From Candidatus Omnitrophota bacterium (lineage in GTDB: Bacteria; Omnitrophota; Gorgyraeia; Gorgyraeales; Gorgyraeaceae), in the NCBI GenBank assembly GCA_003485765.1, contig DNHS01000011.1:9929-73928 (forward strand): a stretch of 64,000 nt of DNA, read 5' to 3'. Numbering within the stretch: position 1 is the stretch's first letter; each line of letters opens with the position of its first letter. The notes under the pieces are model-generated. The model was not told the origin of the DNA. It did no database searches and saw nothing but the letters and a program-made list of their open reading frames with translations. The translations under genes were made by a program, and so were the position numbers. Positions 29,171 through 64,000 of this stretch are shown here, piece by piece.

Positions 29171-29188
29171 GAAGAGGGAGTAACTACA

Positions 29189-29863: not shown

Positions 29864-30647
29864 AGAATTTTCCGGAGAAAAACTCCTCATCAAAGTCATA
29901 GACGATCTTGCAGATTTCTTGCCGTATTTGGTCCTTGTCGGAGGTTGGGTGCCATATATCTACGCCAGATATATTTGGAAGAATGTCCCCAATATGGCAG
30001 TAACAACTGGAGACATAGACTTTGGTGTTGGCGCACAGGATTACAACGGCAAGGATACTGTCGCTTCCTGTGTGCAAAGACTGGGTTACGGAGAGCGCCA
30101 TGTTTCTATGGATAGGTCATTTCCATTCGTTCCTATTGTTAAAGACGCCTCTGGAGACGTGAAAGCCGAAGTTGAATTTATTACTGATCCCAAGGTCTCG
30201 AGAAAGCTTGTAAATAAAATCGTAGGCCAAGAGATCAAGATCAATGAGATTCAGCATTTCAGTTTACTGCTTGGTTCCGTTTTAACGGCGCAAATGGACC
30301 TAAAGAGTATTCAGATACCGACCGAATCGATGTTTACTTTCCACAAATTACTTACATTTGTCGATCGGGAGAATAAGGAGAAATTAAGGAAGGATCTGTA
30401 TTACGTTTACTATATGCTGAGATTCTGCCCTAAAAGGGAACAACTTGCTGATGATGTGGTTGCTCTTATTAAAAAACGAAAAGAAGGAAAACAGGTAAAC
30501 GAAAATCTCAAAGAGTATTTCAGTAGCGTGGATTCAAAAGGACCTCTTTTTGTAGAGCAGGAAAACGGCCCAGATGCTTATATTGATAATGTGAGACAGG
30601 ATGCCTTTGATAAGTTTAGCGGAATCAGGGGAAGGGTTGAGGAGTGA
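29856..30647 (+). CDS. Nucleotidyltransferase, AbiEii/AbiGii-toxin-like
   Basis: Polymerase-beta-type NTase motif LVGGW...TTGDIDFGV near the N-terminus; 263 aa. Translationally coupled to its neighbours. Confidence 0.45.
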   Translation: MSKEFSGEKLLIKVIDDLADFLPYLVLVGGWVPYIYARYIWKNVPNMAVTTGDIDFGVGAQDYNGKDTVASCVQRLGYGERHVSMDRSFPFVPIVKDASGDVKAEVEFITDPKVSRKLVNKIVGQEIKINEIQHFSLLLGSVLTAQMDLKSIQIPTESMFTFHKLLTFVDRENKEKLRKDLYYVYYMLRFCPKREQLADDVVALIKKRKEGKQVNENLKEYFSSVDSKGPLFVEQENGPDAYIDNVRQDAFDKFSGIRGRVEE

Positions 30648-53300: not shown

Positions 53301-56300
53301 AAGAAGGTTTTAGAGGCGCTTGGTATTGAGATTTCAAAGATAGAAAAAATTATCATTACCCACGCAGATATGGACCACGCTGGTGGAGCGCTTAACCTTG
53401 CAAGAGAATCTGAAAAACCTGTATATGTTCACAGAGATTTTCAAAAAATCCTAAAGAGCAGATTTCATTACAAAGCTAATAATCAAGATGAACATTTATT
53501 AGATTATCTTTGCACAATGGTATTTAAGATAATGAGCGATTTTAGAGAGCCAGATGGAATTAAAAATATCTTTTATTATAAAGAAAGCTCAGTATCAAGA
53601 GAATTTGGAGGTTTAGGATTTAATATGCTGGCCGAAGAAGGATTTGGAGATACTAAGATTCTGGTTTTAGAGGCAGGGGGCCATACGCAGGATGGCATAA
53701 TTATTATGCTTACTGATAATAAATATAACCCGCTGGGGATAATAAGCGGAGATGTGTGTATACCCAAAACGATTAAACCTGAACAGGCGCGGTTTGTATT
53801 TACTTTACAAAGATTATCAGGACAGCTTAATTTGGATGAAGGTACACTAAAGAAAACAGAAGAAGCGCTTTTAAGCGTAGAAGGTATCCGCATCTGGCCT
53901 GGCCACGGGAAAAGTTATATGACAGGAAAAAGAATCGACAGGGATTTATCTGATGCTGCACGGATGCCATTGTTGCAACCGTTTTATGATAGATTTGGCT
54001 CAGGATGGGTCGGACAGGCGTTAATGCCGACTCTTATAGAATCTGTATTAGGAGGAATACTTTTTACAACAATCATTAATTTGCTTGGGACATTTATCTT
54101 TGGCATACCGTTTTCTTTCGGCCCGCCGTCTCAAGAGATACTATTTGGTTTTTTCCTGCTATTTCATTTGCTTCATCTGCCGGGAGCGCTCGCAGAAGTG
54201 CCTGGCGCTACAAACCTCCAACAGCTCAAATTCGCATTCTCCGGTGGAAAACTCCTCACAACATTACCTGCCTTTATCCTGGTCGCATTAGGTCTGCTTG
54301 ATCCGATGAGCGGGCTTATCCTTCATACCATACTTCATTTTGTTGAGAATATTTTTTGGAGGGATATAAATAAGCATTACAGAATTGTATCCAGGGATTT
54401 AAATTCTTCCTGGGGACGGAATTTGATAGAAAAACAGTATGAATCAATGGAGATAAATTCGAGTCTATATCAGCTATTCTTTATATTAATTTTGCCGTTT
54501 TACGCGCTTAAAAAACTATTACAGCATGTATCTGTCGCAACTATAGAAGGGATTAAAGAGGCGTGTGGTCAGTTAAGTAAAGGTTACAGCGAAGCTGGAA
54601 AAAAGCTGCCACAGGGTTTTAGTTATCTTGATGAGCTGGAAAAAGACGATATAATTGCTACCATAAAACTGGTAAATCCGGAGGTGATTACGCCGCACGA
54701 AAAGGCCGCTGACGCAAGCGAATTATATAAAGTTATTGCAGCTACAGGCATATTCTCATGGCCAAGGGTTCTTATATTTTCCCAGATAAAATATGATAAA
54801 AAAGAAGACAGGTTTGTGAAATTAGACGACAGTTTATTGCTTGATTTTATTATGGATACGCCGGTCCCTAAATTTATTATAGCAGAATTTTTTATACGAA
54901 ATTTTATAACACCATTTCTTTTATTTGCGTTAAATTCCCGCTTTAGCGCAGTTTTTGTAAGAAGGTCTATTCTACATTCAGGTTTCTTCTCGTGGCCCAT
55001 AATAGTTGCCAAGGCGCCCACGGGCAGTCTGTATGAATATGTGATAGTAGATGGGACCAATCGCTGGAATGTGGCAAGGATATTGGGATTAGAATTGGTG
55101 CCTGTGCAGGTTGTTGATTATGAGGCAGAAGAACCGGCTACAGGAAAAAAATTAATCAAGATTGGGCGATGGGACATGCTTGCAAGGATTAAACCGTCGG
55201 ACTGGGAAGAATTTAAGGTTTTTTGTAAAAGCGAAAGAATTGGTTTATTTGAGATGACGGACCTTAATCAGAGTATTGGAGAATTTAATGGAGCGCCATT
55301 TGCAAGGTTCTGCTATGTGGATGAAAATGACAAGATCGCTTGGTATGCATTAGGAGACCCGGGGGATAGAAGTATAATTAATAGCGGTTCCCATGGTTTT
55401 AAAAAGGCGTTTAATTTGGTGTACGATTATATGCTGGCTAAATGGATTCATGAGGGCATTGCCAGAGACAAAATACCCAATGCTCACGAACTTGACATTT
55501 CAAAAATGCAAAAAGGAGATCTCCTAATCTTGCGGCCTATGTTGACAAAAGAGGAGATACTTGCTTCCGCAAATACAGGAGCGTGGATAGGAGTTAAGAC
55601 AGAGCGTCATGTATTGGATGGGCTTATCGGCAGGGTAGTTGGAGGGGTTGCAGTGCCGCTAACCACCCTTATGGGATTAGATGGAAGTCCAGATGAGGTT
55701 AATATGAAATTACATAATGACCTTGCCAATGCAAGATGGGTAAGATTTCATAAAGATTCATGGCTGGATAGATTTTACGGCGAAAGTACCCTTGCTCCAG
55801 AATTTCCTTTTGGTATAAAGACCAGTCTGATATTTAAGGATGTTTCCAATGGCTTTGTTCTTCAGTTTAAAGGGTATAGGGATATAGGCAGGCTTATTTT
55901 CAATCTCCGGAATTTCTTTAAACTACCATGGTTAGCTGCAGCGCTAAGCTCTTTTGCTATAGTGCCGTTTGATAATCTTAACCCTTCAATTTTACTTGAT
56001 AGTTCTACAATAGAAAGTTTATTCAGTATAAATATTATCTTTGTATTTTTAGGCATATTCGCATTAATTATTTTAACCCTCACCCCTCTTAACCCTATTG
56101 CCGGGATAGGGCTTTACAGGCTCCTTCAGGCGCCTTACAAAATTGCTCCACAAAAGTTTACCACAACATTAAGCAGAAAACAGTGGGAAGATTTTCGCAA
56201 TCCCCACTGGATTTATTCTATTTCTAACATCTTTCCTTCTGGAGTGAAAATGCTGGCAGAGAGATTTCTTTGGACTACCTTTGTTCAACAACAGGTGATA

Positions 56301-59300
56301 AGGCTTATACTGGATGAATTTAGGCCAGAAGCAACCGCTCAATCCCATTTTTTTGGCAGGCTATACAGCAATCTTATAATAAATTCGATTAAACTATTAC
56401 GCCCGAAACTTTTAGCTCTGAACATGATTTCTATTTTAGCAGTAATGCTTTTTTCGCCTTCCGGGGCTCTATTTATTCTTAGTATAACTGTGACAGTTAT
56501 TGCAAGTATTATTATGTTTGTCTATGGAGAGCATTTGCGGGCAAGAATTGTAAGGCGCGGTTTTGAGGTAGGCCAATACGCCCATCTTAAAGAGAATTTA
56601 CCCTCTGACAGAGAAATGCCTTTATTTCATAAGGCTTTTGATTTTCTCATTGAGAAGTCTAATGTCTCTATACAAAAACCAGGATTTTTCCGCGACAGCG
56701 GAGACCTTGCTATTTTTCATGTAATGAATGTAGCTGAAAGATTTGCAGGCAGGGTTAAATCTATGAAGCAAAGATATCCTGATCTAAACTGGATATTACC
56801 CGGAAACCTTTCTGGTAAAGATAAAGGTTCTAATTTTGAAGATGAACTTTTTGCCGCAAGCATGTTGCATGACATAATTGAATCTAAACAGGCCACCTTA
56901 GATGAAATTGAGCAGAGATTTGGCAGAAGAGTCCGTTATTATGTACAATTACTGACCAAAGATGATGTGGATGAAAGCCTTCCTCCTGAAGAATTGGAGC
57001 GCGAGGAGGCAAAACGCGATAGAAAATATCTTGAAGGCTTGTATAGCGGAATACATAAGACTCCCCAAAAAGATAAACCCTGGGGATTACCCTGTCTGCT
57101 GATAAAACTTGAAGATAGAATGAGCAATATTGAGACGATAGACGCTTTTAAAGATGAACAAGGAAAGTCCAGCATAGAACGTCAGATAGAATATCTTAAT
57201 GAAACAGTTTCTCTAATGCTTTTTGGCCATTTTGCATATTTATCTATATGTAAAGATGACGGGAGTTTGGAAAAAGCTCTTTTAGATGATGTTTTAAATA
57301 ATCTTAAAGAAAAATTATATGAGAATTATAGGCGTCTTGAGACCTGCGGATTGTCCCAGGAAGAGCTTAAGAAGTTAGCTTTTATAAAAGAAAGACTGGA
57401 AGCAATCGAAAGACTTGCGGAGTTTCACGGGGATATTTTTAAAATAGGTTCTATTTCTATTCCGCTGACATTGGATTATGTTTTATTGGCTGAAGCAAAT
57501 TTTCGTTATTTAAATAAAGAGGACGCTAATAAGAGAAGGCAAAAAGAATTAGCAGTAGGAAATATATTAGAAGCATACAGATTAGCTGGTGTATCTATTT
57601 TGCATGAAGCAAGAGCAAACTGGCCATTACTTGAGGCAGTCGCTATCTTTGATGAGGCTATTACCTGTCAGGCGCAATTAGGTAAAGAAGATTTAAATAA
57701 TGCTCAGGAAATCTTTGCTAAGATAGCTATGCTTATGGAGCCAAGTGGATTTGAAACCCAGTATAAGAATATATTTATAAATAAACGCCCGCAGGAAGAA
57801 GGCCTGAGGTATTTTGTTTTAATAAATCAGCCCTTTGGAAGAGAAAGAGCAATTCTTGCAGTATCTACTCTGCTTCCTGTTGAGGATAGAGACGTTAAGA
57901 AAGCGCTTAGAAGAAATTTAAGAGCTTCTGCAGGATTAAGAGATGTGGAAACGCCTAAAGCAAAAGTTGACAAGATAAGGTCTTATTTAAAGAAGGTATT
58001 AAATTTATTAGAGATATGTGACGAGAATATAGAAAAAACTGTTGATAATGTTTTTAATCATATGAGTTCATTTACTGCAGAAAGAAGACAAGCTTCTCTT
58101 ATGAAATTGTCATGGCTATGCAAGGCATGGGGTGAAATGTCTGATTTAAGAATAGCTAAGCTGCAGGCAGCTATTCTTTTAGGCAATCCACTTCTACATA
58201 GCGCAATATTTTCTAAACAGCAATTACCTGAAGAAGATTTAGAAATAGTAAAAGAGATAGAAGAATATGCCGCTTCCTATTATCGAGGCGGATTTAAAGA
58301 ACTTATGCGGCAAGTATTCCGCAGGTATTTTAGCAGGACTTTAGTAAATGATGAACTAAAAAGCCAGTATAATGAGCTTCTGGCTTTGGCAGGAGATGAT
58401 AAATTCTGGGATTTATTATGGGAGTGTTCTGAGAAAGAAGATTTAACGCCTCCTGACCTTAACCTTCTTTCTGTATGTATTAATGACTGTTTTTCAAATC
58501 TACCCATTGCTACATCAGCGCAAAGAAAAGAGGTTTTTGAAATTATCTCCTGGGCGAAGATGGAGGGATTTTTAAATGAAGCAGTAGGGTTGCTTAGCGA
58601 GAAAGGGATTCCTCGCAAGGGAGATATCCGTCATCCCTTGCTTGTTTTACTCCTTTCTTATTTACAAAATCCAACAGAAGAAAGAAAAGCATTGTTAATT
58701 GGAGTATTAAAAGAACTGGCGCAGCCTGAAACGCATATTAAAGTATCAGAGGTTGAAACAATGTTTAAGACCGATTTAGCTCCACTAATTTCTCTGGCTG
58801 AAGAAAATGAGACTATTGGCAAAGCTTTAAAAATTGCCCATAAGGCTTATAATGGTCGTTTCTTCTTAGGTGGCGCACAAAGATATATTGACCATGCTAT
58901 GCTTTATGCTGCACATGTCCTAAAACTAGCTAAAGAACTTGATTTACCATTATCTATTCAGGAGAACCTTATCTGCGCTGCTCTACTGCATGGTTTAGAG
59001 CAGGATATAGATGGCATAAAAACATATTTGATTAGTGAAGGAGAACTTGATAAAACCGCGGCAGAACATATTGCCAAACTTGCAACAAAGGTAAGAGACG
59101 TTACAAAGATACCTTATTTTCCACCGGAATCAGGGACCTATTTTATCTATAACCATATGAATCTTATAATACAAGAGGCAGCTTCGCCAGAGGTTATGCT
59201 TCTGGCATTCTGCGACCGCTTAGCCAGTATCTCAGTCGTAGGAAATATTCCTTCCAATCTCAAACAATATGCTGACTATGTGATTAGAGAAGCAAAACAA

Positions 59301-62300
59301 ATCTATATTCCCCTTGCTGAAAGGTTAGGATTATCCAGCGTGGCAGGTGAACTAAGAGAGAGGATATTTTTCTTGGAACAAAGAGATGTATATTTAGCTA
59401 CAAGAGAGCGGCTATTAAAATATGAAATGTTTGGCAGGGGAATGGATTATGAGGAAGCTAAGAGAAGATGGGAGGAAGATGAAAGATTGCAACTTGAAAA
59501 TGAGTTGAAAAATTTAGAAACCAGAGTTCCTGGGCTTATAATCGAGACGCTCAGCCTAAGAACAAAAAATATTTATTCTATCAGGGAGAAAACACAGCGA
59601 AAACCAGACGAATATCCTGGCCCAGAGTCTGAAAGGGATATATTTGGAATAAAGATTTTGATTAATTCGAGAGATTATCTTGCTAGGGTATTAGAATTTC
59701 TCTCAAACCGCTATGGTGTAAAGACAGTGGGAGCAGAGGAAAAGCATAGACTATATAAAGTTTATCATCTTAATCTTCAGGATGAGCAGGGTAGATATAT
59801 AGAAATCCAGATATTCTGGGATAAAGCTGAGTATTTGAAAGAAAGAACAGGTGAGTACGCTCACTGGGTAAAGAAAGCAAGTGAAGAAACCGGGGAAAAA
59901 TTTTCTCCTGACAAAGTTGAAAATGATATGGGAAAACTTGTCCCTATTGAACTGACAGGAGATTTCTTTGAAGATTTTAACGCTATCCATGGTTCCCCGG
60001 TTATAAGAAACTGGGTTTACGTAGTTTACCATCCGGATGGCAGAGCCTTAAGGCTAAAGAGAGGCGCTACAAGCGCTGATTTTGCTTCTCTGCCCCGCAT
60101 CGATCGTTTTGATGCCAATTTTAGCGGAATAACTATCGCAAAAACCAGCTTGGATTTAATATCTCCACGTGAAATACAGGATGAAGAGGAACAGGCACTT
60201 CTTATTTATCATGATATGATAAGCGTCGCTATACGTGAGCATCTTGAGAGAGGTTTAAATAATGAAATATCTCCTGGAGCTGAAATTTTGTCTTTTAAGA
60301 AGAAAAATGAATATCTTTTAGGTAGCGAAGGTGAAAAACGTAAAGCAGAAATCGAAAGAACAGCAAAACATCTTCGCACAATTCTTTTGCTTAGGCTACT
60401 TTCATTGAGCAAACCTGCAGAATTTCGGGCTGAAAAAATAGAAAGAGGCAAGAAAGCGCTGGCGCGGACTTTAGGTATTGATATTAAAAGAGATTTTCAG
60501 ATGCGTACTTTTCTAAGGCCGCTTGTTTATCAATATGACTTGGCTGATGCGGATGAATTATATATTTGCCTTGCCTTGGCAGAAGAAGGAGATAGGGCAA
60601 TAAAAGAAAGATTATTTGATTTATCAGATATCAGGGAGATGGCAAAAAATATCGGGCAGGAAATATTAGAGAAGGAAAAGATTCAATTAATGGATAAGGA
60701 TTTAACCAACTTTAATTTTGAATCAAAAGAGCAACTCTATATTGCCCTGGCTACAGGGCAGATTGAGACATCTGAAATCATCAAGCGTAGAACTTCTAAT
60801 AAGGATCTTTTTGTTAAGAATATGTTTGAGAAACAAATTTCATTCGATTGGGCTGCTTTTCGTAGAGGTGAAGATACGTCATTAAAGATCTTAGCCGGAG
60901 CATTTATAGATACAGAACAATATGTCCTTTTATATGATTTAAAGATAATCAAAGGCAAGCATATTATTATCAAGAATGCAAATATTTCTAATCCGCGCGA
61001 TTTTGTTTTATTGGAGTTAGTTATAGGGATGCTTAAAGACCATGGCGCTAAGGTTACAGTATCAGGGCTGCAACTTGCATATTTAGATACTCCAGAAGGT
61101 AGGCTTCATACTGTTATTCTTAAAGGCATTATAGAAAGATTAAGCAAAGGCACGCATGATTTTAAAAAGGCATCTAAAACGCGGCGTATTACACCTAAAC
61201 CAGATCAGATATTATGTCTTGGCGCGCAAAAACAGGGTTTGGCGCAGACACTTGCAGAAAAGTTTAATATAGGATATGCAGAAGTATCAGTAACCCCATC
61301 TGCTGATGAATGGCCACTCGTAACACTCCCTGAGTTACAAAAAAATCTAAAGCATGTTATGCTTGTGGCTGATAGCGCTACTGATGAAGATGTTTTGAAG
61401 ATTCAGTTGACAGTTGCGCTGCTTAAAGCTAAAGGGGTAAAAGAGGTTATTATAGTAGATCCATATATCAGGTATTCCCGCCAGCATCATTTTGAGGTAA
61501 ATAAAATAGGCCAGGCAGGCAGTAATAGTTTCAAGACATTCTTGGATATTCTTGATGGTTTTTCTGGTGGAGATTTTAGAGTCAGCGCGCTCTTTGGCGC
61601 AAATATCCATGCAGTGAAATATGATGATAAGACTGGGGATAGAATATTGGCAGTAGGAGGATATACTGGGGGCATTGATGTTATAGATATAGATGTTTTA
61701 CCTGAAGTTGCCAAATATTTTGTCCAGAAATTTAACTTAGGGCCTAAAAAACTATTTGTGATGGCAACAGATAAAGGTTCTAATTTCTATGCGCAGAATG
61801 TTGTTAACTTTTTGAGAACATTAGGATTAGATGTGGAATTTGTATATGTGAAAAAAATACGTATAAGCGAGACAAAAGTTATATTTGAAAAGCAGATATT
61901 TAGAAAAATCCAAGGAGAAGAAGCAGAAATTGATTTGGATGAATTGAAAGAAGCTGATGTTTTAGTCACAGATGATGAGCTTCGCACTGGAGGCACGCTG
62001 CGTGAATTATGCGATTTGTTAATGAAAGATTTAGAAATTGGCAGGGTCTTTGTGGGCTTTACGCATGCTATATTCTCAAAAGGCCCTGAAGCTTCCAGAG
62101 ATATGTTTAACGATCTCTTGGAACAAGGCAGAATGGCAGCTTCGAATTCTGTCATCTCTGTTACTGAGCGTAATGAAGTCTTGCCTGAAAAGATAAATGT
62201 TGATAGATATATTGTAGACAGTATTTATAGTCATATAGGATCGAATAGCTCTGCAAACAATTTAAAGCAATTAACCCATCACATTATCCCATCCGAACTT

Positions 62301-64000
62301 TTCAGTATTTCAGTCCTTGCGCTAGTATCAGGCATTGTCCCAGTTATCTTAAAGGTTTTGTTTAGGATAGATATACCTGATTGGCTGCCATACCTTAATA
62401 TAGTGACTGTGCCACTAGCTGCATTCTTATTTGGATTAGCTATTTCTATACAGCATACGCTTGACTTGTTAAAAGATACGCTTCAAATCAGAGATGGGCC
62501 ATCAGCAATAAGATGGATTGATTCTCTCTTTAAAAAGAAAACTCCGTCACTTATTGCTGAATTTACAGAATCTGATCAAATTAAGCACGATTCCACCAGT
62601 TACATTGCCTATTATTCTCAAAAAGATAAATTGATCCATATAAGGCGCGAAGCTGTCGAGCAATACCAAGACTATATCCAGCGTCTTATCTACATTAAGG
62701 AAAAAACTCAGCAAGCTCTTAACCAGCCCAAGCTTCCTAATGAAATCATATCCTATGCAGTAATGATTTTAGCAATTGCGCCTGTAATGAGCTTGGAGTG
62801 GAATAGAGGAATTAGATATGCCAGCCTTGGAGCTATGTACTGGCGTCTTTATCAGCATAGCAGTATGCCAAAACATCTGACTGCCGCAATAATCTATTAT
62901 GAAGAGGCAATTAAAGAGGGTGTCTGGAAGAAAATTATCCCCCTGAAGATTCGGCAGGCTATAGAAACGAGAAATACCCCTTATGATAGCGATATGGGAG
63001 ATACTTCATGGCAGGATATAGAAGTATTTGCTGAAAGAGGCCGTGAGGCTATAAAAAATATACTTGGGCAATTAAAATCTGAGATTGAGGCATTTCAAGA
63101 AGCTATCTTCGATGGGCACATAAAATTAAAGTCAGTTGAGCAGTTTCGGCATATAAATAACTGGGTGCATAAGCTCTTTCTGATAGAGGTTGAGCTTCAG
63201 GATAATAAATCCCTTTCATTCTATCTTGTCTATCCAAAAAAAGGAGAAATGCGTGTTATTTTGAAGGGCCCAAAACGCATAATGGCTGATACAGGAAAGA
63301 CCCACCAGGAGCCAGATATTGAGATTAGTTCTCTTCAGAGATATTATGAGGAAATAGAGGATATTGTAGGATTTCTACAGAAGGAATTCAGAAATCCTAA
63401 TGTTTTTCTGGGAGAAGTTAGGTATCTTCGAAAAAAAAGAAGCGCGCAGGTTTTCTTTTCTATAAACTCAGAACATATACAACTTGCGCGAGCAGCTAAT
63501 CCGCTTATCAGTTTTTTGGCAGGGCAATTACCCGATACCTCGTTTGCCTTTCATTCTGCCATTTGCTGGGTAGATACTGAATCTATGGAAAGATATGACG
63601 GAATCGCAGGGGTGCGCTTTGTATACCTGCCTCGCAGCTGGCTTAGACAGCTTACGCCTAAAAAAATCGCAGATATAGGGCACGAATGGTTTCATATCAT
63701 ATGGACAGCATGGCTGAAAAAGGAAATAAAGATTAAAGAACGGCAAACAGGTGGGGCTATACTGCGAGAAGAGGAAATTAGCCATCTCTCAAGGATGGAT
63801 AGGCTGAGGGGATTTGCGTTAAAAGAAGAAGCGCTCTTATCTCTGAGAAAGTGGCTTGCATCAAGCTCTATTTACCGCTTTATTTTTGAGGAAGAAGAAA
63901 AAAATCCCGAAGAGTTCCGAAATGACTTAGCCGAGGAAATTATTGCGCAACTTATAGAGGCTATATTTAAAGGCGATGCTGCCATAGTCAAACCAGAGGA
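35394..64000 (+). CDS. Giant multidomain membrane-anchored protein, 3' partial. It reaches at least 9,535 codons without a stop and runs off the window.
   Basis: Frame 0 (positions divisible by 3) was translated manually from the ATG at 35394; an in-frame TGA lies at 35385-35387. No stop was encountered through nt 64000. The ORF track lists no + strand frame-0 ORF over this 28.6 kb, which is consistent with a single unterminated frame. Spot checks at 45000, 49980, 56100, 63480 and 63960 all read as sensible protein. Signal peptide MLDWQNKTWIKIISTVLIVAFLTYDIAWA. Neighbouring genes use TAA, TAG and TGA as stops. Confidence 0.7.
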   Translation, partial: MLDWQNKTWIKIISTVLIVAFLTYDIAWATDFTPLQKKQYTSRSLFKNKKVDQTTISSQNEQSLETIKDALSHKKNNNTKDSIYHKDSTLSLKASYINDIANIYINDTLGKVIDSYTSPNSKGTVIHIQDLHTNPEASLNLANILEILIKDYDLNLVCSEGASGIVDTSSVSNFPDKDVREKVARVFINSGELTGEEYLSITKYPNLPIWGIEDKDTYFQHIIEFNKIIKFSKDALNLINQIKDELNNLKPKIYSKALLDLDSKEIEYQESKLDTTKYLEYLLNLAKEITSEATSKSSPRNDISLSNYKNITIFKETLNLEKTIDQSKIIKESQEILSSLQSILKDKDNKNELKSLSIKASLFKDKKISPFSFYSYLDELARRHIKDLDSYTNLINFVSYLKKINSLDSNKLFNEIEELTFDIKDLISDNPNQKLLTKALRNIHFLESFFNLKVSNEELEYYLKDKDSFKVTFFESYLKENLQKYNIDSFINYNPDLIDKNLPDLENFYGLAHKRDLAMFNNTTSEIETRKPKLTALIAGGFHTQGITKLLKDNNYSYVVISPYSKTTIDEENYRNLLAGKRKPLKELIKGLNEKLRPLMGFVNRGVRKDYNNQVPPTLRVLGIIIAEAQPLAERVTMLLAVAGGQTTEPVTTLAAIAPDLHTVVTSTESVLPDVRIEGIKPEVTATVPLAYSSADLTMTDPLEAVLPSATSTSRVEAAVVSLTDETSASYTTTTQVFAPPGAVTTTMQEQLAILPPEEVVTFTGPTIGRTSISTVTSAAALPKAKTVVSTVTTAVAGASVMFFQQQGTNEPFSTAFLLSAIAVGIISIALLVFVLWHSKRAQEIDEVEHFFNEEAYDSDSIIVPLDRGEIVKKAPFIIMTILAWIYFAAHLEMSHKFVWLLLIVSLGFYGGGVLSNIIEPLLSEHMESRDFKSLRGANPADLFQLANAIVSYGIIGYFMGPVMNLDTFPAIVLGIAVGLLFYRFHIYHHFIERYFKAYTKFKNDPYSIAITNGQPMPLWLSPLYKIYDVAFYILGIFEVLLPILAVKTLISPAMEGAILPLDSGSPQLALFAGTILASFKSAGTRISHWKSDLSAVLRTHVKLLPIVLIILASGLNLVFGVAMQSQGGGLQFELLFPILAFISAVSVFIWLSWKLPDGLPKPMIMFFAAAAAYIVVGYGLPLLIYNAHVFAYGLGVPGLPTPWPTGTPIPTLTPVPTWTPTMTPTATSTPLPTFTPVPSSTPFAPGSTLQPPLIDQSQGDFMGPVWSALAIAGFYMFMCVTALIEFGKSLSIRAKAGIVVIPVLLMWLAVYYLDPALALALNQLWSDLWLSLTTGLTGSLLEPGTSQLALSAGTTLAVSAALLGKTHKSIDEIEKVVLSGALEPGQRVELMLEMAGLLKAADNEAGGASDTGEQLPLFEAETLTSPARLVIETQEGKSLYDTAREKIVAPFLDALSGWIQVIQQGPTNMPKGLGRLVGDARNIFGLSEVIGHRSRQDLDTMWQKDKPDPFLLWTNWEQYKDTSDSKDILLRDAIAMRLWEMLIGLINTRLVKLEKDFLNEEAEHNLKDAELKLMDPNAKTIAHFPQMSSIRAQINGLAAARKAIVLSGPAELYKMLTAIKLGKSSEWTLTQRNHVKEFLNQHIDGGVYQIKLIRILEVLNEWQEEHFVVISAPSEMQPIALINQRLAALFDPATFAEGLRLVAATVTDAQGFTKRLAIVIQAVVGDGAGEKAQMNRKAIAIALVGLLEQSNPQTAIVLVAQTIRALVEDKPGLAYDLAGDLAGLSPERFNQVVDGNIEVLGNIMNALGWGQLPALNQSEAVINKMEQVELNADPIDALTSGPLDDVFFQQLNAELSPETRKTIRRIPSLAAFLLGLKPIFYNSRNNPNIHRVVLNMIEAPSVQKRLAAGQWSMSQSPWRGIILASRDWISQIDDVLKIALADANREALAKQVFDAAGEFFARTHGNPLTLEEQTQVLDTVNSQLATLPYDEVLEGVVCGIPLLDAVLFGVFRGLPETFHLPFGGLPSEFSIPNLRYFNQRFPAAPDYVVFTQFFAERLKKWDSKIAQAYGRMEHNGYSNSGSVYIDMVNPEIGMLRNQVEVILEAARKVGKSIKIWLRVKHRVSIDTNKLPEERRWLGDIVNRADGDSIEGILSALEKAGVDTSILPDDYNSRLNTYITTLAQLGKALVIDPTQEVSPQQGADFNEAFEQCRMALESAGFNGPPESEDLLIPSDMTDSYLIFERISARWNNLITSLASEVYNQTLKATNNPDAAWVAANLILTTNGAEGVSLTTSPLIIKDDTFNNASKLLSPLAHLGLVTASSILNLGAGDTLDISIVAAEAEPAPKLAYDANRKTGAALVMGARDGLPAEALEVFASDTRDNSLWATAAVEPVAVSKMHADVADDITVVSIDQNLPTADLVHDVLEALKLTLMVEGDADESAATLQQHEAHLLVEAKRVKDVREIAKKGAKDYVAEHLNTEVVIEEHTPSYVPLSTEDIENKSLRKAIGRINRELIARHPITAGVLAELYDIALGRKKDGVDEADSFRKLVTVIAEAMRQEAEKQPSPGTSPIEDFPVRLLLRDGECYFVTRRTMLTLPEFVSGVTQAHGVLLPQAVDWSIFAQHVWDSMILRGEALQAVVERAMVLQEAFLKETARSYTKTYGQSFQTVRTIQGLVEVPPDTYRFTDLYPDLLQTGDTLRQQLPSIDPVRRIIAGAKQPLETEADIERLVEQPAREVVRHLKRLGVQTDTANAYGSGLKRVSWEGPDGNFYITLLQRESYNIEALSTEPLQPKAPTDMVLEELSEWIGDRPQQLAKQYEAKLEALQEQHADNPEALANALEAFHAERQAALQKFAEEIFSKTIESLAAMSVDDQIAHTLANFITQWALAITGAYSVSATESHPQGRFLYPAGCLARGIEGLTRKMYQDIRREGLSCSFNRDKTRRTSVYPEAVSFALCPDEMFASGRTTAIDKFGPSKSKDNVTFVLDPEWVKANKGKFKLVGSVFDPSGPSRIRYSEGLELLGLEKHEYEVEVRVIGTDLFVGNRDEIHFISISQEQFEDIPPEAILGIIARPEKIIEMLQWDRELGLGSLPMFAWKREPYVRKLSLFDPDVEETNAQLALKVITEAKNRIAQAGDLETIRAMNDIFEFARKLGAVEIEGEEAGSCFTSEMGILALDENGWGIIEEMRKDASAFNHLRESDGYIQLLARLGEYDKVNGPGIYFNREAVLQREREQRYKVTKSYFVIKLYELLVSEFNLIDIDFYQTTFYKHPIVLEGGFRFASLMGPDELQVILTLIKKYMDSRFLSREGIREYIVKLMEDSGTQEFHEESLEMFTSGVDRDMLRALRSQPAVVPAPAGNDSETAGTGYFSGEKWADIFSGRSSQIKDNDLTAHYQERILRVVEDALRKNSLDDTDRAIFQAVANGLRQGAYYIYGFKGIVVGSNDYCLGLHSFNPGFSRLFLATDVMAELETVGGPELVDAYFLRLLQSSSSQRYNMSLENAMLRGFIDGERHFIELRGFKTPETERLAEETAREFLEYTVVREYLRASGVYQGFDLQKLCGFILDETTGAWQPPEIEGGRRLKLYVSASEDIEQLRREIRNGLWHVLRVTPRSIEGRLTSEAKKILPPEVIEQIERIGSWDLAKWTEDDFNAITLSGRAIYLKLLNPIRIGNETFEAVRLIGSVALELLPPLLIPHRRGRGLNIDSKGAIERGGFDPLGGLILEGALTETETLLLLRQAGYDVSYPCGHYRYPGQVFEGDETGFSVMLMHEGQEKRMFDQWGEIMNTSGFSRGRHVLGPIYKMGRFSRWIQENLGRTWPGQHYTNVSLTGAELRSVRFHDFKESKVLPDNIAQAVGLRFLDIAEFVMHNEYSIKMGADSEQAIERVATELKLAKAYLEGYFADLLNKPDPRIVNFLTEEEFPNTIEFIKSVMRNSIPSGEYYSVPIYQIKHPLIALLIELEEKRQSRRERLASPGGLGTSSDISSSVASSLMGVRNDSLRVIPLAEMTLRKVPKKPVEQGEPVSEEINTAVTAEAENAAAAAKAQKVDTVQAEAVVGNAIQSLIHLTNQVTNLINNMGEGKYASQPNALEGIQRQLKAVVERVVDVDKIPASTSGIDVVKGQIRTLEILLGFLEALEPGKSATGMAPEQADSPDSLANIISQLQIILAQFQAERVKLGNKIEEWRFQRSLTGLSGLEKFLGAVIALTAIIIAPFGIGYLAGGISGVVAVWFALFLLTVSWAPLDWFMKEDWKAGTVSLGIATLALLFLPKFGVSAADYLIYPWTAWMAIGMFRMILGGIRGNRNDFSAVEADAYQGIDFSQIAVNLRNSWPVRLLNWLTFSVIFPAIQLVSEQIRQALSDDEFKKQIAALGDTIVQSYQEAVTAGNALQETVKDVQGEMEAIQGEMGRLSINVETAGNEITGLFSQFKELEKLSQKLEDEIGQARQEVEKRWADALPAARAKAEQVKALHSQMSALADDSQVHIDRIHTFDHERKQALLARFSALRESIEKLNSGVAKTKEVLDALELQVQKSRNSLKQRNLAVAQQHVNTGKQLVALAEQLLEQVDKGVRDAELEWEPAITDDAVSQGQFEVNLEQEKEALRVDKQRMADLLLKAASLVEEMVIEKQVIRAETAHVITNARAAGGQLRRATMTMEESLEAIRLRSGGLSGEVDTAGQKLQEALDKLGKSRSAADKEIGNIIQARAKGDTALKEIGRFRDDLIGKRVDSKSVQTKLLELSLQVEQAQDAINTAGETAKALLPNQKIWNEALQAMMLVARTAHDVLSRQYERTRLAEERLTEAEAVNMSGSEEYQALIASGQAEKLAMASLNADIETMISRGLADIAESLLATRAQRALLIKTYTDWIASVKAARENMGQQLALFGEALERIDYLIEERKSQKALQLSLQAKFRQLEEELRPGEVTLEIRGEDWIRMIGDENLLRVLIEKNPFLRVDNIAYVLSNNGAPVILYIRIQVLSPDERIFRPIEVGFGFEARQETLRIAKERMQELRAISDPLLKLLEDMREQFGIPETAIKWEDSRSSVKGRMLVRRLPPAEEDKGIPIQDVFGYGILGAIEKSRQPEWVDQLIKAQETEPGSLLEEFVRFMESGRTTTDPRSRPGWASSGGWGSAMPAERKLQEVSLVTADSAVMHRPNVGWHNDAGRLWRRQGIGGLLPIFTRMFKAVGIDGLKRILFFQPLLEWLCFTVLPSSIAIYITGQPITSPEGLLIFGVVGVFMQIPFLLGHISDKRLLLPAALVAIGASLPGALLVLGFSLPLAVVALGPLIAHIAINSVFRIYLLSIDTLPSNSDAFSEISARAPPFVLRAIWLRLVINNVLKVISEDKKVILTGHNNYEAIKEVYYEIARRKPEALDKIYIRPKYITKNITPRVKAKLDKLKSKYPDTLPLNILINVTIIEGKDGIRIYRAPLLRELKNNEVYRLNLESSVQNGVGEFALRKENFPADDPERVIVCELAGRLVSGVITYIKEGDIPNTYNMLRDEFENKEVLLKGEVTLWCYWIFSRSITLWPKALIYFIGEWIKFISSGRRTPKPSWKKIKLRGLGSQTVDAVIEYVKHLKTIFGDDVQIVIAAYSRASEYYKFHAKVMIENENDYINKFFKQFNVIWGGHSGINYYPYAVVKKETEDKYNKAGFDELFAYLLWLKDKKYKLAEAHKYFGLFLIEHQEYRVFDDTIWFHCRNALAKGMVPVVGPVQLNSRPEDIEGGYANVPVFYRGEQRRQIITNSILNNEAIKNRLGDAEGAELRTIYDNIIDLAVQAIIDGEVNKEKLDKLCGDLRGRAPSNPEKIGEFLLDLYYLLRNENYFNLEKQTLLKIFTRLFAELIAPFRMTRPADVRYPAKMADNISKALDNSISRAETLIAKIGGEFRVKETKLSDIETTIEFVNETDKPFISCQKIRVSSEVEITQIRFEDGANVEIIAKGDAENRSYIMVDGSMSVTYPALKKVLEALGIEISKIEKIIITHADMDHAGGALNLARESEKPVYVHRDFQKILKSRFHYKANNQDEHLLDYLCTMVFKIMSDFREPDGIKNIFYYKESSVSREFGGLGFNMLAEEGFGDTKILVLEAGGHTQDGIIIMLTDNKYNPLGIISGDVCIPKTIKPEQARFVFTLQRLSGQLNLDEGTLKKTEEALLSVEGIRIWPGHGKSYMTGKRIDRDLSDAARMPLLQPFYDRFGSGWVGQALMPTLIESVLGGILFTTIINLLGTFIFGIPFSFGPPSQEILFGFFLLFHLLHLPGALAEVPGATNLQQLKFAFSGGKLLTTLPAFILVALGLLDPMSGLILHTILHFVENIFWRDINKHYRIVSRDLNSSWGRNLIEKQYESMEINSSLYQLFFILILPFYALKKLLQHVSVATIEGIKEACGQLSKGYSEAGKKLPQGFSYLDELEKDDIIATIKLVNPEVITPHEKAADASELYKVIAATGIFSWPRVLIFSQIKYDKKEDRFVKLDDSLLLDFIMDTPVPKFIIAEFFIRNFITPFLLFALNSRFSAVFVRRSILHSGFFSWPIIVAKAPTGSLYEYVIVDGTNRWNVARILGLELVPVQVVDYEAEEPATGKKLIKIGRWDMLARIKPSDWEEFKVFCKSERIGLFEMTDLNQSIGEFNGAPFARFCYVDENDKIAWYALGDPGDRSIINSGSHGFKKAFNLVYDYMLAKWIHEGIARDKIPNAHELDISKMQKGDLLILRPMLTKEEILASANTGAWIGVKTERHVLDGLIGRVVGGVAVPLTTLMGLDGSPDEVNMKLHNDLANARWVRFHKDSWLDRFYGESTLAPEFPFGIKTSLIFKDVSNGFVLQFKGYRDIGRLIFNLRNFFKLPWLAAALSSFAIVPFDNLNPSILLDSSTIESLFSINIIFVFLGIFALIILTLTPLNPIAGIGLYRLLQAPYKIAPQKFTTTLSRKQWEDFRNPHWIYSISNIFPSGVKMLAERFLWTTFVQQQVIRLILDEFRPEATAQSHFFGRLYSNLIINSIKLLRPKLLALNMISILAVMLFSPSGALFILSITVTVIASIIMFVYGEHLRARIVRRGFEVGQYAHLKENLPSDREMPLFHKAFDFLIEKSNVSIQKPGFFRDSGDLAIFHVMNVAERFAGRVKSMKQRYPDLNWILPGNLSGKDKGSNFEDELFAASMLHDIIESKQATLDEIEQRFGRRVRYYVQLLTKDDVDESLPPEELEREEAKRDRKYLEGLYSGIHKTPQKDKPWGLPCLLIKLEDRMSNIETIDAFKDEQGKSSIERQIEYLNETVSLMLFGHFAYLSICKDDGSLEKALLDDVLNNLKEKLYENYRRLETCGLSQEELKKLAFIKERLEAIERLAEFHGDIFKIGSISIPLTLDYVLLAEANFRYLNKEDANKRRQKELAVGNILEAYRLAGVSILHEARANWPLLEAVAIFDEAITCQAQLGKEDLNNAQEIFAKIAMLMEPSGFETQYKNIFINKRPQEEGLRYFVLINQPFGRERAILAVSTLLPVEDRDVKKALRRNLRASAGLRDVETPKAKVDKIRSYLKKVLNLLEICDENIEKTVDNVFNHMSSFTAERRQASLMKLSWLCKAWGEMSDLRIAKLQAAILLGNPLLHSAIFSKQQLPEEDLEIVKEIEEYAASYYRGGFKELMRQVFRRYFSRTLVNDELKSQYNELLALAGDDKFWDLLWECSEKEDLTPPDLNLLSVCINDCFSNLPIATSAQRKEVFEIISWAKMEGFLNEAVGLLSEKGIPRKGDIRHPLLVLLLSYLQNPTEERKALLIGVLKELAQPETHIKVSEVETMFKTDLAPLISLAEENETIGKALKIAHKAYNGRFFLGGAQRYIDHAMLYAAHVLKLAKELDLPLSIQENLICAALLHGLEQDIDGIKTYLISEGELDKTAAEHIAKLATKVRDVTKIPYFPPESGTYFIYNHMNLIIQEAASPEVMLLAFCDRLASISVVGNIPSNLKQYADYVIREAKQIYIPLAERLGLSSVAGELRERIFFLEQRDVYLATRERLLKYEMFGRGMDYEEAKRRWEEDERLQLENELKNLETRVPGLIIETLSLRTKNIYSIREKTQRKPDEYPGPESERDIFGIKILINSRDYLARVLEFLSNRYGVKTVGAEEKHRLYKVYHLNLQDEQGRYIEIQIFWDKAEYLKERTGEYAHWVKKASEETGEKFSPDKVENDMGKLVPIELTGDFFEDFNAIHGSPVIRNWVYVVYHPDGRALRLKRGATSADFASLPRIDRFDANFSGITIAKTSLDLISPREIQDEEEQALLIYHDMISVAIREHLERGLNNEISPGAEILSFKKKNEYLLGSEGEKRKAEIERTAKHLRTILLLRLLSLSKPAEFRAEKIERGKKALARTLGIDIKRDFQMRTFLRPLVYQYDLADADELYICLALAEEGDRAIKERLFDLSDIREMAKNIGQEILEKEKIQLMDKDLTNFNFESKEQLYIALATGQIETSEIIKRRTSNKDLFVKNMFEKQISFDWAAFRRGEDTSLKILAGAFIDTEQYVLLYDLKIIKGKHIIIKNANISNPRDFVLLELVIGMLKDHGAKVTVSGLQLAYLDTPEGRLHTVILKGIIERLSKGTHDFKKASKTRRITPKPDQILCLGAQKQGLAQTLAEKFNIGYAEVSVTPSADEWPLVTLPELQKNLKHVMLVADSATDEDVLKIQLTVALLKAKGVKEVIIVDPYIRYSRQHHFEVNKIGQAGSNSFKTFLDILDGFSGGDFRVSALFGANIHAVKYDDKTGDRILAVGGYTGGIDVIDIDVLPEVAKYFVQKFNLGPKKLFVMATDKGSNFYAQNVVNFLRTLGLDVEFVYVKKIRISETKVIFEKQIFRKIQGEEAEIDLDELKEADVLVTDDELRTGGTLRELCDLLMKDLEIGRVFVGFTHAIFSKGPEASRDMFNDLLEQGRMAASNSVISVTERNEVLPEKINVDRYIVDSIYSHIGSNSSANNLKQLTHHIIPSELFSISVLALVSGIVPVILKVLFRIDIPDWLPYLNIVTVPLAAFLFGLAISIQHTLDLLKDTLQIRDGPSAIRWIDSLFKKKTPSLIAEFTESDQIKHDSTSYIAYYSQKDKLIHIRREAVEQYQDYIQRLIYIKEKTQQALNQPKLPNEIISYAVMILAIAPVMSLEWNRGIRYASLGAMYWRLYQHSSMPKHLTAAIIYYEEAIKEGVWKKIIPLKIRQAIETRNTPYDSDMGDTSWQDIEVFAERGREAIKNILGQLKSEIEAFQEAIFDGHIKLKSVEQFRHINNWVHKLFLIEVELQDNKSLSFYLVYPKKGEMRVILKGPKRIMADTGKTHQEPDIEISSLQRYYEEIEDIVGFLQKEFRNPNVFLGEVRYLRKKRSAQVFFSINSEHIQLARAANPLISFLAGQLPDTSFAFHSAICWVDTESMERYDGIAGVRFVYLPRSWLRQLTPKKIADIGHEWFHIIWTAWLKKEIKIKERQTGGAILREEEISHLSRMDRLRGFALKEEALLSLRKWLASSSIYRFIFEEEEKNPEEFRNDLAEEIIAQLIEAIFKGDAAIVKPE
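37830..39490 (+). other. Giant protein: first polytopic transmembrane region (about a dozen hydrophobic helices) containing a Pro/Thr-rich linker at 38979-39150
   Basis: Runs of 20-25 hydrophobic residues (e.g. FLLSAIAVGIISIALLVFVLW; IIMTILAWIYFAAHL) and the linker GLPTPWPTGTPIPTLTPVPTWTPTMTPTATSTPLPTFTPVPSSTP. Confidence 0.5.
47990..50200 (+). other. Giant protein: second TM cluster (47990-48450) followed by a roughly 570-residue coiled-coil-like region rich in A/E/Q/L/K/R heptads
   Basis: Hydrophobic helices (VIALTAIIIAPFGIGYLAGGISGVVAVWFALFLLTVSW...) are followed by heptad-like sequence such as LQETVKDVQGEMEAIQGEMGRLS...LEQEKEALRVDKQRMADLLL. Confidence 0.45.
53260..53930 (+). other. Giant protein: metallo-beta-lactamase-fold domain with a variant metal-binding motif (TH-A-D-M-DH-AGG instead of HxHxDH)
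   Basis: IIITHADMDHAGGALNL at 53352-53386, then downstream LEAGGHTQDG, ...GDVCIP... and IWPGHGK, matching MBL motifs 2-5. It resembles the glyoxalase II THxHxDHAGG signature with a His-to-Asp substitution. Confidence 0.5.
55030..55115 (+). other. Giant protein: ParB/sulfiredoxin-like (DGxxR) nuclease-fold motif
   Basis: YVIVDGTNRWNVARILGLELVPVQVV resembles the ParB N-terminal domain core. Short match identified by eye. Confidence 0.3.
56640..57260 (+). other. Giant protein: SpoT/RelA-type HD (p)ppGpp-hydrolase-like domain with intact catalytic residues
   Basis: AIFHVMNVA (His), AASMLHDIIESKQAT (HD plus ED..T) and LLIKLEDRMSNIETI (Asp) align with SpoT YITHPLAVA / AALLHDVIEDT / LIKLADRTHNMRTL. 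Confidence 0.6.
58821..60180 (+). other. Giant protein: complete long-RSH N-terminal module. It has a degenerate HD (HG instead of HD), a RelA/SpoT nucleotidyltransferase ((p)ppGpp synthetase)-like domain and a TGS domain.
   Basis: KIAHKAYNGRFFLGGAQRYIDHAMLYAAHVLKL...AALLHGLEQD aligns with the SpoT HD domain. The synthetase motifs are DIFGIKILINSRDYLARVL, YKVYHLNL, RYIEIQIFW and EYAHWVKK (compare D.xGIR, GYQSLH, EIQIRT and AHWxYK). The TGS-like segment is VYVVYHPDGRALRLKRGATSADFA. Confidence 0.65.
61200..62190 (+). other. Giant protein: full-length ribose-phosphate pyrophosphokinase (PRPP synthetase, Prs)-like domain
   Basis: ILCLGAQKQGLAQTLAEKFNIGYAEVSVTPSADEWPLV aligns with the Prs N-terminus ([35 protein letters not shown]). 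VIIVDPYIRYSRQHH aligns with AVIPYFGYARQDRK. VLVTDDELRTGGTL aligns with the PRPP-binding loop ILVDDMIDTAGTL. The whole domain is about 330 residues. Confidence 0.6.

Follow-up and report, generated by a model that had tools for sequence, protein, structure and literature searches.

A diverged long RelA/SpoT-homolog module in a giant membrane protein of an Omnitrophota bacterium

The RSH module and its host protein

We analyzed a RelA/SpoT-homolog (RSH) module that is encoded within a giant gene of a Candidatus Omnitrophota bacterium. The DNA is a stretch of 64,000 nucleotides (GenBank assembly GCA_003485765.1, contig DNHS01000011.1, positions 9,929 to 73,928 of the forward strand), here called the window; all nucleotide coordinates are positions in the window and all amino acid numbers are residues of the giant protein. 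In an open reading frame (ORF) scan, the giant gene was open in frame 3 from its ATG to the last base of the window, an uninterrupted frame of 28.6 kb with no stop codon (Table 1). The gene leaves the window at its 3' side, and the encoded length of at least 9,535 aa is thus a lower bound. Kyte-Doolittle analysis placed hydrophobic helices at aa 818-1317, 4203-4250, 5234-5303, 6218-6267, 6876-6894, 7011-7043 and 8964-9019. A Pfam scan over the whole length of the protein matched few domains, these being HD_4, RelA_SpoT, Lactamase_B, and Pribosyltran_N together with Pribosyltran; the named nearest relatives of the protein all come from Omnitrophota metagenome-assembled genomes (MAGs). The RSH module occupies aa ~7,810-8,420, with a separate HD domain upstream of it and a domain resembling phosphoribosyl pyrophosphate (PRPP) synthetase (Prs) downstream.

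Table 1. Positions of the giant gene and of the features in and around its nucleotide-enzyme block.
Feature	Position (nt)	Strand	Remarks
Giant ORF	35394..63998	+	Signal-like N-terminal helix; at least seven hydrophobic-helix clusters (Kyte-Doolittle)
Hydrophobic helix aa 6876-6894 and helical hairpin aa 7011-7043	56019..56522	+	Hydropathy; precede the nucleotide-enzyme block
Upstream HD domain, Mesh1/small-alarmone-hydrolase-like	56640..57260	+	H7109, H7159-D7160, D7240, N7245; insertion of ~26 aa
Linker, ~520 aa	57261..58820	+	No Pfam match; aligns throughout with locus L001
Pseudo-hydrolase HD domain of the RSH module	58824..59333	+	Pfam HD_4; LHG for LHD, QD for ED, Ser for Asn
RSH synthetase domain (SYNTH)	59556..59880	+	Pfam RelA_SpoT, E 2.7e-10, 41 bits; PDB and Foldseek matches
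TGS-like domain	60003..60302	+	hhalign and alignments; insertion; canonical His absent
Helical domain	60360..60650	+	AKHLRTILLL ... ELY; aligns with the post-TGS helical domain of long RSHs
PRPP-synthetase-like (ribose-phosphate diphosphokinase-like) module, ~470 residues	60825..62234	+	RQ, His (ANIH), DKG, K.R and DDxxxTGGT kept
Hydrophobic helix pair aa 8964-9019	62283..62450	+	Hydropathy; close the nucleotide-enzyme block

The initial annotation of this DNA had proposed that a giant, membrane-tethered protein carries, some 7,800 residues from its start, a long-RSH-type module with pseudo-hydrolase, synthetase (SYNTH) and TGS domains in that order. Our analysis bears out this arrangement, in what is a multi-pass membrane protein and with the third domain being TGS-like. 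The motifs quoted in its favor each occur once and lie where they had been placed. Within the module we located AALLHGLEQD (58977-59006), LRTKNIYSIREK (59556-59591), DIFGIKILI (59637-59663), EEKHRLYKVYHLNL (59736-59777), IEIQIFW (59799-59819) and YAHWVKK (59856-59876). When compared with Pfam, two of the three proposed domains scored above the gathering score, HD_4 with an E of 8.8e-14 (52 bits against a gathering score of 27.2) and RelA_SpoT at nt 59559-59870 with an E of 5e-8 for the whole protein and 2.7e-10 for a sub-fragment (33.6-41 bits against 27); TGS was not significant. The NCBIfam model TIGR00691 matched the module with an E of 8e-28, but the 97.2 bits obtained fall short of its curated whole-protein cut-off of 499.2.

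Comparison with solved structures gave the same identity. By phmmer against the PDB, Staphylococcus aureus Rel (7OIW) was matched with an E of 1e-12 over a region that spans the hydrolase, the synthetase and the start of the TGS domain. An AlphaFold2 (AF2) model of the module had a mean predicted local distance difference test score (pLDDT) of 60.7, with values of 70-87 in the catalytic cores. In Foldseek this model was placed on Rel, RelA and SpoT, with Bacillus subtilis Rel, ribosome-bound E. coli RelA, T. thermophilus Rel, RelSeq and SpoT all matched at an E of ~1e-10, compared to ~1e-4 for small alarmone synthetases (SASs), including SAS1. These matches, which lie well outside what chance would give, confirm that the RSH module is a genuine, strongly diverged long-RSH derivative. 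The module is longer than had been annotated: its end was given as 60180, but the TGS-like part extends to ~60300 and the helical domain to ~60650, so that the module covers ~58820-60650 rather than 58821-60180.

Conserved and lost residues of the enzyme domains

For comparison of individual residues, the window module was aligned with 20 relatives of its own clade, obtained by an exhaustive search described below, and with four ordinary long RSHs. Residue numbers for RSHs follow the RelSeq numbering, after Hogg et al. 2004. The hydrolase domain next to the synthetase shares its substitutions (Table 1) with its relatives: the HD-motif Asp (the D78 equivalent) is missing in all 20 of the other clade members, and the equivalents of the E81-D82 dyad and of N148 are likewise not kept across the clade. 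The domain lacks the hydrolase catalytic set of bifunctional Rel/SpoT and is in the RelA-type [hS] state. The earlier proposal that this HD domain is inactive is in agreement with these substitutions and with their clade-wide occurrence, and we predict an inactive hydrolase as a property of the whole clade.

RelA proper was considered as the identity of the module and was rejected, based on an E in the PDB search of 1e-12 to Rel compared to 2e-3 to E. coli RelA. A further reason is that RelA is not known outside the beta- and gammaproteobacteria. Since the module resembles Rel more than it does E. coli RelA in sequence, inactivation of the HD domain in this clade was probably independent of that in RelA.

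The synthetase domain retains the residues for ATP and Mg binding. Kept in the window are R8056, K8058, K8066, D8082, E8137, Q8139 and H8157-W8158; all equivalents of the ATP/Mg set (R241, K243, K251, D264, E323 and Q325) and of the AHW motif are accounted for, and each is found in at least 18 of the 20 other clade members, most of them in 19 or 20. The Arg of the GIR motif (R269 equivalent) is replaced by Lys in the window. ATP/Mg-dependent catalysis has apparently been kept by SYNTH, since such conservation across the clade would otherwise be hard to explain.

The domain that follows SYNTH had been annotated as a complete TGS domain, a description that needs correction. The Pfam TGS model matched the window with an E of only 0.032 over 21 residues, and it matched none of the 11 clade members scanned. 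It was by profile-profile comparison alone that the domain could be recognized: hhalign aligned the post-synthetase region of the clade with the whole of the canonical RSH TGS region (probability 96.1%, E 3.3e-9), covering the VYVF strand, LRLPxGSxPxDFA and LxxGDxVxI, with an interrupting insertion of 25-45 residues (~40 in the window). The AF2 model has a pLDDT of 30-50 in this region, too low for it to be relied on there. The His of DFAYxIH, a motif that presumably reads the 3' end of tRNA, is found in all four of the canonical long RSHs aligned and is missing in the window and in all 20 clade members. The hhalign alignment points to a degenerate TGS-like fold.

In long RSHs a helical domain follows TGS (Atkinson 2011), and the window has such a domain at the corresponding place. 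Pfam scans of the window detected no ZFD or ACT domain after the RSH module. Elsewhere in the clade, one of the 11 members scanned matches Pfam ACT, and there is ACT-like sequence at the C-terminus of another protein (P0012).

The separate HD domain upstream resembles Mesh1 and the small alarmone hydrolases (SAHs). Its match to Pfam HD_4 (E 5.9e-5, 23.3 bits) lies under the gathering score of 27.2, the NCBIfam model TIGR00691 gave an E of 1e-8, and its best solved relatives in the PDB are human MESH1 (E 3e-5) and RelSeq (E 8e-4). The orthologous segment of a second Omnitrophota locus (L001, see below) matches HD_4 with an E of 1.1e-10 and 42 bits. All of the top 15 Foldseek matches in the PDB to an AF2 model of this domain were Mesh1/SAH structures; note that the five-sequence alignment used for the model included RSH HD domains. 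The catalytic residues were read from an alignment restricted to HD domains, and the motifs in which they reside are AIFHVMNVAE (56709-56738), SMLHDIIESK (56859-56888) and IKLEDRMSNI (57102-57131). A homolog search with this domain as the query returned no relatives. Based on its metal ligands, the domain is possibly active as a hydrolase.

An Omnitrophota-centered clade and the Prs-like partner

An exhaustive HMMER search of 1.84 billion representatives yielded 584 matches to the RSH module; a word-indexed homolog search gave only 5-7, even with a profile as the query. Approximately 20 of the 584 matches had an E of 1e-15 to 1e-55, compared to ~1e-11 for ordinary long RSHs. Motifs specific to the clade are LPYxPP...IQNxMNMIIQ, IYAPLAERLG, YEFQ(F/L)(M/V)T and ETGQxFDxDE...GNFxxDF. 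Clade members with source names are from Omnitrophota MAGs, including Candidatus Orphnella occulta, apart from one Saganbacteria protein. By these sequence matches the RSH module belongs to a distinct clade of which nearly all named members are Omnitrophota. We also scanned genomes for related loci with an alignment of four sequences as the query, and three loci were returned; a weaker genome-scan match, with 27% identity, is on a Planctomycetia contig.

Members of the clade take three forms. The first consists of stand-alone proteins of 680-780 aa, the N-termini of which resemble Sec signals (a basic stretch, a hydrophobic helix, A-x-A, then LRPxAYxLS). The second consists of multidomain proteins that are 1,000-2,000 aa long and in at least one case have ACT, and the third of modules within giant proteins. 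Among the stand-alone members, P0011, P0013, P0017, P0018 and P0020, along with locus L004 (8001-10169), have the signal-like start, and most of them end in Cys-x-x-Ala-Ala. The gene for P0013 is preceded by a pstSCAB-phoU operon and followed by a gene for an RF-1-domain protein.

The surroundings of the module are conserved along with it in locus L001 (JBFZAU010000129.1, Omnitrophota MAG PPR_0475), a 12.9-kb contig with one open frame throughout. Residues 346-1915 of L001 are collinear with residues 6883-8473 of the window protein, at 36.7% identity over 1,634 columns; the stretch in common comprises membrane helices, the SAH-like HD domain, the 520-aa linker and the RSH module. From this alignment, the HD-linker-RSH block behaves as one conserved unit that is under selection.

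One alternative is that an ordinary stand-alone rel gene was fused to its neighbors by mis-assembly or by a sequencing frameshift. The locus is indeed hard to assemble, with public short-read assemblies of this organism breaking at the start of the giant gene. Against such a fusion stand the uninterrupted frame, P0001 as a fragment with 99% identity that comes from an independent ENA contig, the collinear arrangement in the single frame of L001, which is from a different MAG, and the occurrence of the module inside two further long multidomain proteins, P0002 (44% identity) and P0010 (28%). In addition, the module has no start of its own, no ACT domain, and lacks residues that are normal for an RSH. 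We consider an artifact to be extremely improbable, and mis-assembly was rejected on the evidence of L001, P0001, P0002 and P0010.

Directly downstream of the RSH module lies the Prs-like module. Its motifs (Table 1) were read from an alignment that included a presumed E. coli Prs sequence as reference. In Pfam, Pribosyltran was matched with an E of 9.7e-7 (28.7 bits against 26.3) and Pribosyltran_N with an E of 1.5e-4 (22.1 bits against a gathering score of 25), these matches lying at nt ~61218-62022. The NCBIfam models PRK00934 (E 1e-19) and TIGR01251 (E 8e-18) were also matched, at bit scores under their curated cut-offs (70.8 against 296 and 64.4 against 113, respectively), and Methanocaldococcus jannaschii Prs (1U9Y) was matched in the PDB with an E of 1e-6.

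The Prs-like block is 70-73% identical to sequences in P0008 (OIO34682.1, Omnitrophica CG1_02_40_15) and P0009, neither of which has an RSH module. Besides N-terminal sequence, both have three segments in common with the giant protein, placed in a different order, aa 5332-5851 and 8480-9136 being among those shared. The N-terminal region of P0008, which is 2,102 aa long, is 56% identical to that of the giant protein (window 35394-37800) over ~800 aa; for P0009, only the first 34 aa are similar. The order of the segments in P0008 and P0009, as read from these alignments, indicates that modules are shuffled in an Omnitrophota membrane-protein family whose members are of very different lengths. 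The order RSH followed by Prs-like is found in three different proteins, these being the window giant, P0002 (named in NCBI as 'ribose-phosphate pyrophosphokinase-like domain-containing protein', Candidatus Omnitrophota) and P0010. The recurrent pairing suggests a functional link between two enzymes that both transfer pyrophosphate from ATP, and no description of it was found in the papers examined.

The makeup of P0010 (MFA6358535.1, Omnitrophota, a fragment of 5,805 aa) was also noted. It contains a PGK-like domain, the RSH module, two or three Prs-like domains and a NagB-like domain, all of them enzymes of a cytoplasmic type. Its enzyme domains are separated by a repeat of ~100 aa that ends in ...ILYHELISHI, which has the HExxH motif of zinc proteases, and this suggests that P0010 may be a self-processing polyprotein. 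The possibility that the window giant is likewise a polyprotein with interspersed proteases was considered and dropped; a self-comparison of the giant was without internal repeats, and the 'HELISH' repeat of P0010 was undetectable in it. The sole HExxH in the visible part of the giant protein is HEWFH (window 63681-63695), near the end of the window. Its context loosely resembles the P0010 repeat, with no significant similarity detected.

Membrane placement, proposed role and genomic setting

The hydrophobic segments on either side of the nucleotide-enzyme block provide information on its location. Both flanks of aa 7011-7043 are rich in Lys and Arg, with three and four positive charges per 20 aa, the C-terminal flank being YGEHLRARIVRRGFE. 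This suggests that aa 7011-7043 form a re-entrant hairpin and that the enzyme block would be in the cytoplasm. The placement follows from the positive-inside rule as applied to the hairpin flanks, on which we rely weakly; it fits with the need of all three enzyme domains for ATP or nucleotides. A cytoplasmic location of the block is thus likely. The charge pattern, like the Prs-like domain, the Omnitrophota-centered RSH clade and the block collinear in another MAG, had been passed over in the initial annotation.

On balance, we think it somewhat more likely than not that the block is a membrane-tethered, ribosome-independent hub for nucleotide pyrophosphokinase and hydrolase activities on the cytoplasmic side. 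In such a hub, ~1,900 residues of a giant multi-pass membrane protein would hold together the SAH-like HD domain, the RSH module and the Prs-like diphosphokinase. With ATP as the donor, SYNTH would place the beta-gamma pyrophosphate on a purine nucleotide at its 3'-OH, producing (p)ppGpp and/or (p)ppApp, with the acceptor uncertain because the acceptor pocket is remodeled. The pseudo-HD domain would have a structural or allosteric role only, as in RelA, and the separate Mesh1/SAH-like domain may remove the product of SYNTH. Given that the TGS His, ZFD and ACT are absent and that membrane attachment holds the enzyme in place, activation would not be expected to occur through deacylated tRNA on a stalled ribosome, but would more likely track the giant protein's own state. 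The Prs-like neighbor, also a transferase of ATP pyrophosphate, may supply or consume a linked metabolite.

Several observations count against such a hub. The acceptor side of SYNTH differs from that of every characterized (p)ppGpp synthetase: in the guanine-nucleotide acceptor pocket (PKxNGYQSLH and the Arg of EIQIRT) the equivalents of N306, Q309 and R327 are not kept, and the position of K304 is mostly Glu in the alignment. The R327 position is hydrophobic in all 20 clade members and is Phe in the window. The stacking Tyr, Y308, is present in only 8 of the 20; the window keeps both this Tyr and the His of YQSLH. It had been correctly noted earlier that the acceptor region is atypical while catalytic residues are kept, but YKVYHLNL had been singled out as a deviant GYQSLH, and with its Tyr and His retained the true departures are the N306, Q309 and R327 equivalents. 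A pocket remodeled to this extent could give a different product or an inactive domain. The upstream HD domain, which had been called catalytically intact, has the metal ligands (H, HD and D) and the Asn, but its Glu-Asp dyad reads Glu-Ser (LHDIIES) in the window and Glu-Glu (LHDTVEE) in L001; the Ser is at the position of the D66K substitution in the human MESH1 structures 5VXA and 9CHY. Confidence in the AF2 models is moderate, with a pLDDT of 60.7 for the RSH module (8-sequence alignment) and of 66.7 for the upstream HD domain (5 sequences). As to location, counting helices from the signal-like N-terminus gives a parity opposite to that of the local charge rule, the signal-peptide-like N-termini of the stand-alone clade members hint at export, and topology predictions for Omnitrophota giants are unreliable (West-Roberts et al. 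2023).

The remodeling of the pocket is central to one alternative, according to which the domain is a pyrophosphokinase with a non-alarmone acceptor, or a silent scaffold or ligand sensor. The acceptor might be the 3' end of tRNA, as for FaRel2/CapRel, a sugar phosphate, or a PRPP-related metabolite made by the Prs-like domain, which follows RSH in all three of the proteins named above. Acceptor-side residues are altered throughout the clade (R327 is never Arg, N306 and Q309 are lost) with the ATP/Mg side kept, and enzymes of the toxic SAS (toxSAS) type are known that pyrophosphorylate the CCA ends of tRNA. A silent scaffold is argued against by the near-invariant catalytic Asp, Glu, Arg and Lys residues, and a non-alarmone acceptor by the retention in the window of the stacking Tyr and the His of YQSLH; the co-conserved Mesh1/SAH-like hydrolase also fits with a product of the alarmone type. 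We rate this alternative as unlikely, and retain the cytoplasmic hub with an alarmone-type product as the preferred reading.

A second alternative concerns location. The RSH module, perhaps with the Prs-like domain, could be an effector against prey that is displayed on the giant surface protein or released from it, being exported or injected so as to be active within prey or host cytoplasm. It would there consume the ATP pool and load the cell with excess (p)ppApp or (p)ppGpp, in the manner of Tas1/Apk1 and of the exported alarmone synthetases (EASs), with the SAH-like HD domain protecting the producer in cis as an SAH antitoxin does. All exported or toxic RSHs of which we know are single-domain SASs, and the module here keeps pseudo-HD, TGS-like and helical domains that are typical of regulated long RSHs. 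The parity of the helix count from the N-terminus puts the block outside, but the hydrophobic hairpins with positive flanks that bracket it suggest a cytoplasmic loop. The giant has a signal-like N-terminus and stand-alone clade members have a hydrophobic helix followed by A-x-A|LRP, which is Sec-like; P0013, however, lies in a housekeeping neighborhood of pst-phoU and an RF-1-domain gene rather than in a toxin-immunity locus. Neither PADLOC nor toxin-type models gave a match, and when the giant protein was scanned with Pfam, no LXG, Rhs, PAAR or MuF domain was matched, nor any protease or release domain nearby. From the literature, Omnitrophota giants have been proposed to serve in attachment to or attack on prey, and a predatory or parasitic way of life has been proposed for many members of the phylum; export of RSH synthetases is documented (Ahmad et al. 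2025, PMC12691689), and SAHs can neutralize toxSAS toxins (Jimmy et al. 2020, PMC7229694). With these points taken together, an effector seems to us improbable.

A further reading would have a long RSH turned by Omnitrophota into a deployable weapon or a device for host manipulation, with a lineage-specific clade of enzymes either Sec-exported as proteins of ~700 aa or carried in envelope-spanning giants together with an ATP-consuming Prs-like domain. It would drain ATP and impose an alarmone growth arrest in the prey or host, the Mesh1-like hydrolase in cis serving for self-protection. In its milder form, a divergent long-RSH lineage of the Planctomycetes-Verrucomicrobia-Chlamydiae (PVC) group would have been rewired so as to sense the membrane or contact in place of the ribosome. 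We consider this reading to be improbable.

The preferred cytoplasmic hub can be compared with known systems. The module is like Rel, RelA and SpoT in its order of HD, SYNTH, TGS-like and helical domains, in the fold of its catalytic half and in the ATP/Mg residues of SYNTH, and like RelA in having an inactive HD beside a presumably active SYNTH. It is unlike them in that it is not free-standing but part of a membrane protein with a length of at least 9,535 aa, and in its remodeled acceptor pocket, its TGS insertion, and its lack of the TGS His, ZFD and ACT. The upstream HD domain is best compared, by sequence, by fold and by its H, HD, D and N residues, with Mesh1/SAH (human and Drosophila Mesh1, Corynebacterium glutamicum RelH and Pseudomonas aeruginosa SAH), from which it differs by being embedded in a giant, by the ~26-residue insertion and by the Ser in place of the dyad Asp. 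The Prs-like module has the motifs and the two-lobe Pribosyltran_N plus Pribosyltran layout of class III (archaeal-type) PRPP synthetases (1U9Y; PRK00934), but it has insertions and is fused behind RSH in a giant, and its activity is a prediction.

Exported and toxic SASs (SaEAS, VpEAS/RelV, AaEAS, Tas1/Apk1 and FaRel) are RSH synthetases on export signals or large secretion-associated carriers, and the signal-like N-termini of the stand-alone relatives recall them. Those toxSASs and EASs are single SYNTH domains, whereas the window module is derived from a long RSH, lies between membrane hairpins and lacks a separate gene for immunity. The survey that described EASs stopped its iterative search so as to leave out large RSHs with multiple domains (Ahmad et al. 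2025, PMC12691689). With the Omnitrophota giants ('Archaeovorins' and Dockerin-type; West-Roberts et al. 2023; Seymour et al. 2023) the window protein has in common the phylum, a very long ORF, many predicted transmembrane helices, few recognizable domains, strongly diverged enzyme domains and a modular makeup. The domains listed for those giants are glycosyl transferases and hydrolases, methyltransferases, peptidases, NUDIX, SecA-DEAD and dockerins (West-Roberts et al. 2023; Seymour et al. 2023). No SecA_DEAD domain was detected among the 9,535 aa that are visible. The 35 kb that precede the giant gene have no type II/IV secretion-like cluster and no type II secretion genes; domain and cluster alike could lie beyond the window.

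The claim that the arrangement had not been described holds within the literature examined, though an earlier description may exist elsewhere. The Omnitrophota giant-gene literature examined (West-Roberts et al. 2023; Seymour et al. 2023; giant-gene preprints) makes no mention of RelA/SpoT, ppGpp or pyrophosphokinase. Conversely, Omnitrophota are not mentioned in the RSH surveys (Atkinson 2011; Jimmy 2020) or in the EAS paper (Ahmad et al. 2025), and transmembrane segments and signal peptides are not mentioned in Atkinson 2011. Long RSHs were reported absent from the PVC superphylum genomes then available (Atkinson et al. 2011); the NCBI taxonomy places Omnitrophota within the PVC group, and our data point to an uncharacterized RSH clade in one lineage of that superphylum. 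The enzyme family is a known one, while its architecture, the clade and the pairing of domains are new; catalytic activity, product, topology, regulation and function are predictions from sequence.

RSHs are central enzymes of bacterial stress signaling, and have so far been described as soluble ribosome-associated proteins, small single-domain synthetases or hydrolases, or single-domain toxins. The case here differs in that a long-RSH derivative is part of a giant multi-pass membrane protein, with the ribosome-sensing parts and the hydrolase lost and with a synthetase core that has an altered acceptor pocket. The arrangement would link nucleotide signaling or warfare with those proteins that are the least understood in a phylum of predators or parasites. 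The functions of the Omnitrophota giants are largely unknown, and the RSH module provides a concrete enzymatic handle on them that can be assayed.

The giant gene lies in an ordinary chromosomal setting. The 35 kb on its 5' side encode AcrAB-TolC-like efflux, RlmN, PtsI, PGI, MetK, AhcY, LptF/G, MiaB, MiaA and HflX, and there is no second RSH within this distance. HflX of the window is identical to that on NCBI contig MHEZ01000002.1 (GCA_001803975.1) and on groundwater metagenome contigs. Short-read contigs with an identical hflX (loci L006-L008) stop ~330-400 bp past hflX, at the start of the giant gene, and the giant gene is therefore fragmented at best in those public short-read assemblies. 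The module probably went unnoticed because these contigs break where the giant gene begins.

Some further features of the window were recorded. The giant protein has a metallo-beta-lactamase-fold domain at window ~53250-53705 (Pfam Lactamase_B, E 5e-13), and the segment that bears it (aa 5332-5851 and beyond) is kept in P0008 and P0009. The G+C content is 0.43-0.47 at window 38000-50000, the 5' third of the giant gene, compared to 0.36-0.41 elsewhere in the window; the modules encoded there may differ in origin or in composition. What looks like a type IV toxin-antitoxin pair lies ~5 kb upstream of the giant gene (window 29129-30647), with a gene for an AbiEi-type antitoxin followed by one for a nucleotidyltransferase (NTP_transf_8). 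A ComF-like protein with a double zinc ribbon and a phosphoribosyltransferase domain is encoded on the - strand at window 23366-24082, adjoining lptF/lptG. The lptF/lptG neighborhood shows that the organism is a diderm with a lipopolysaccharide export system.

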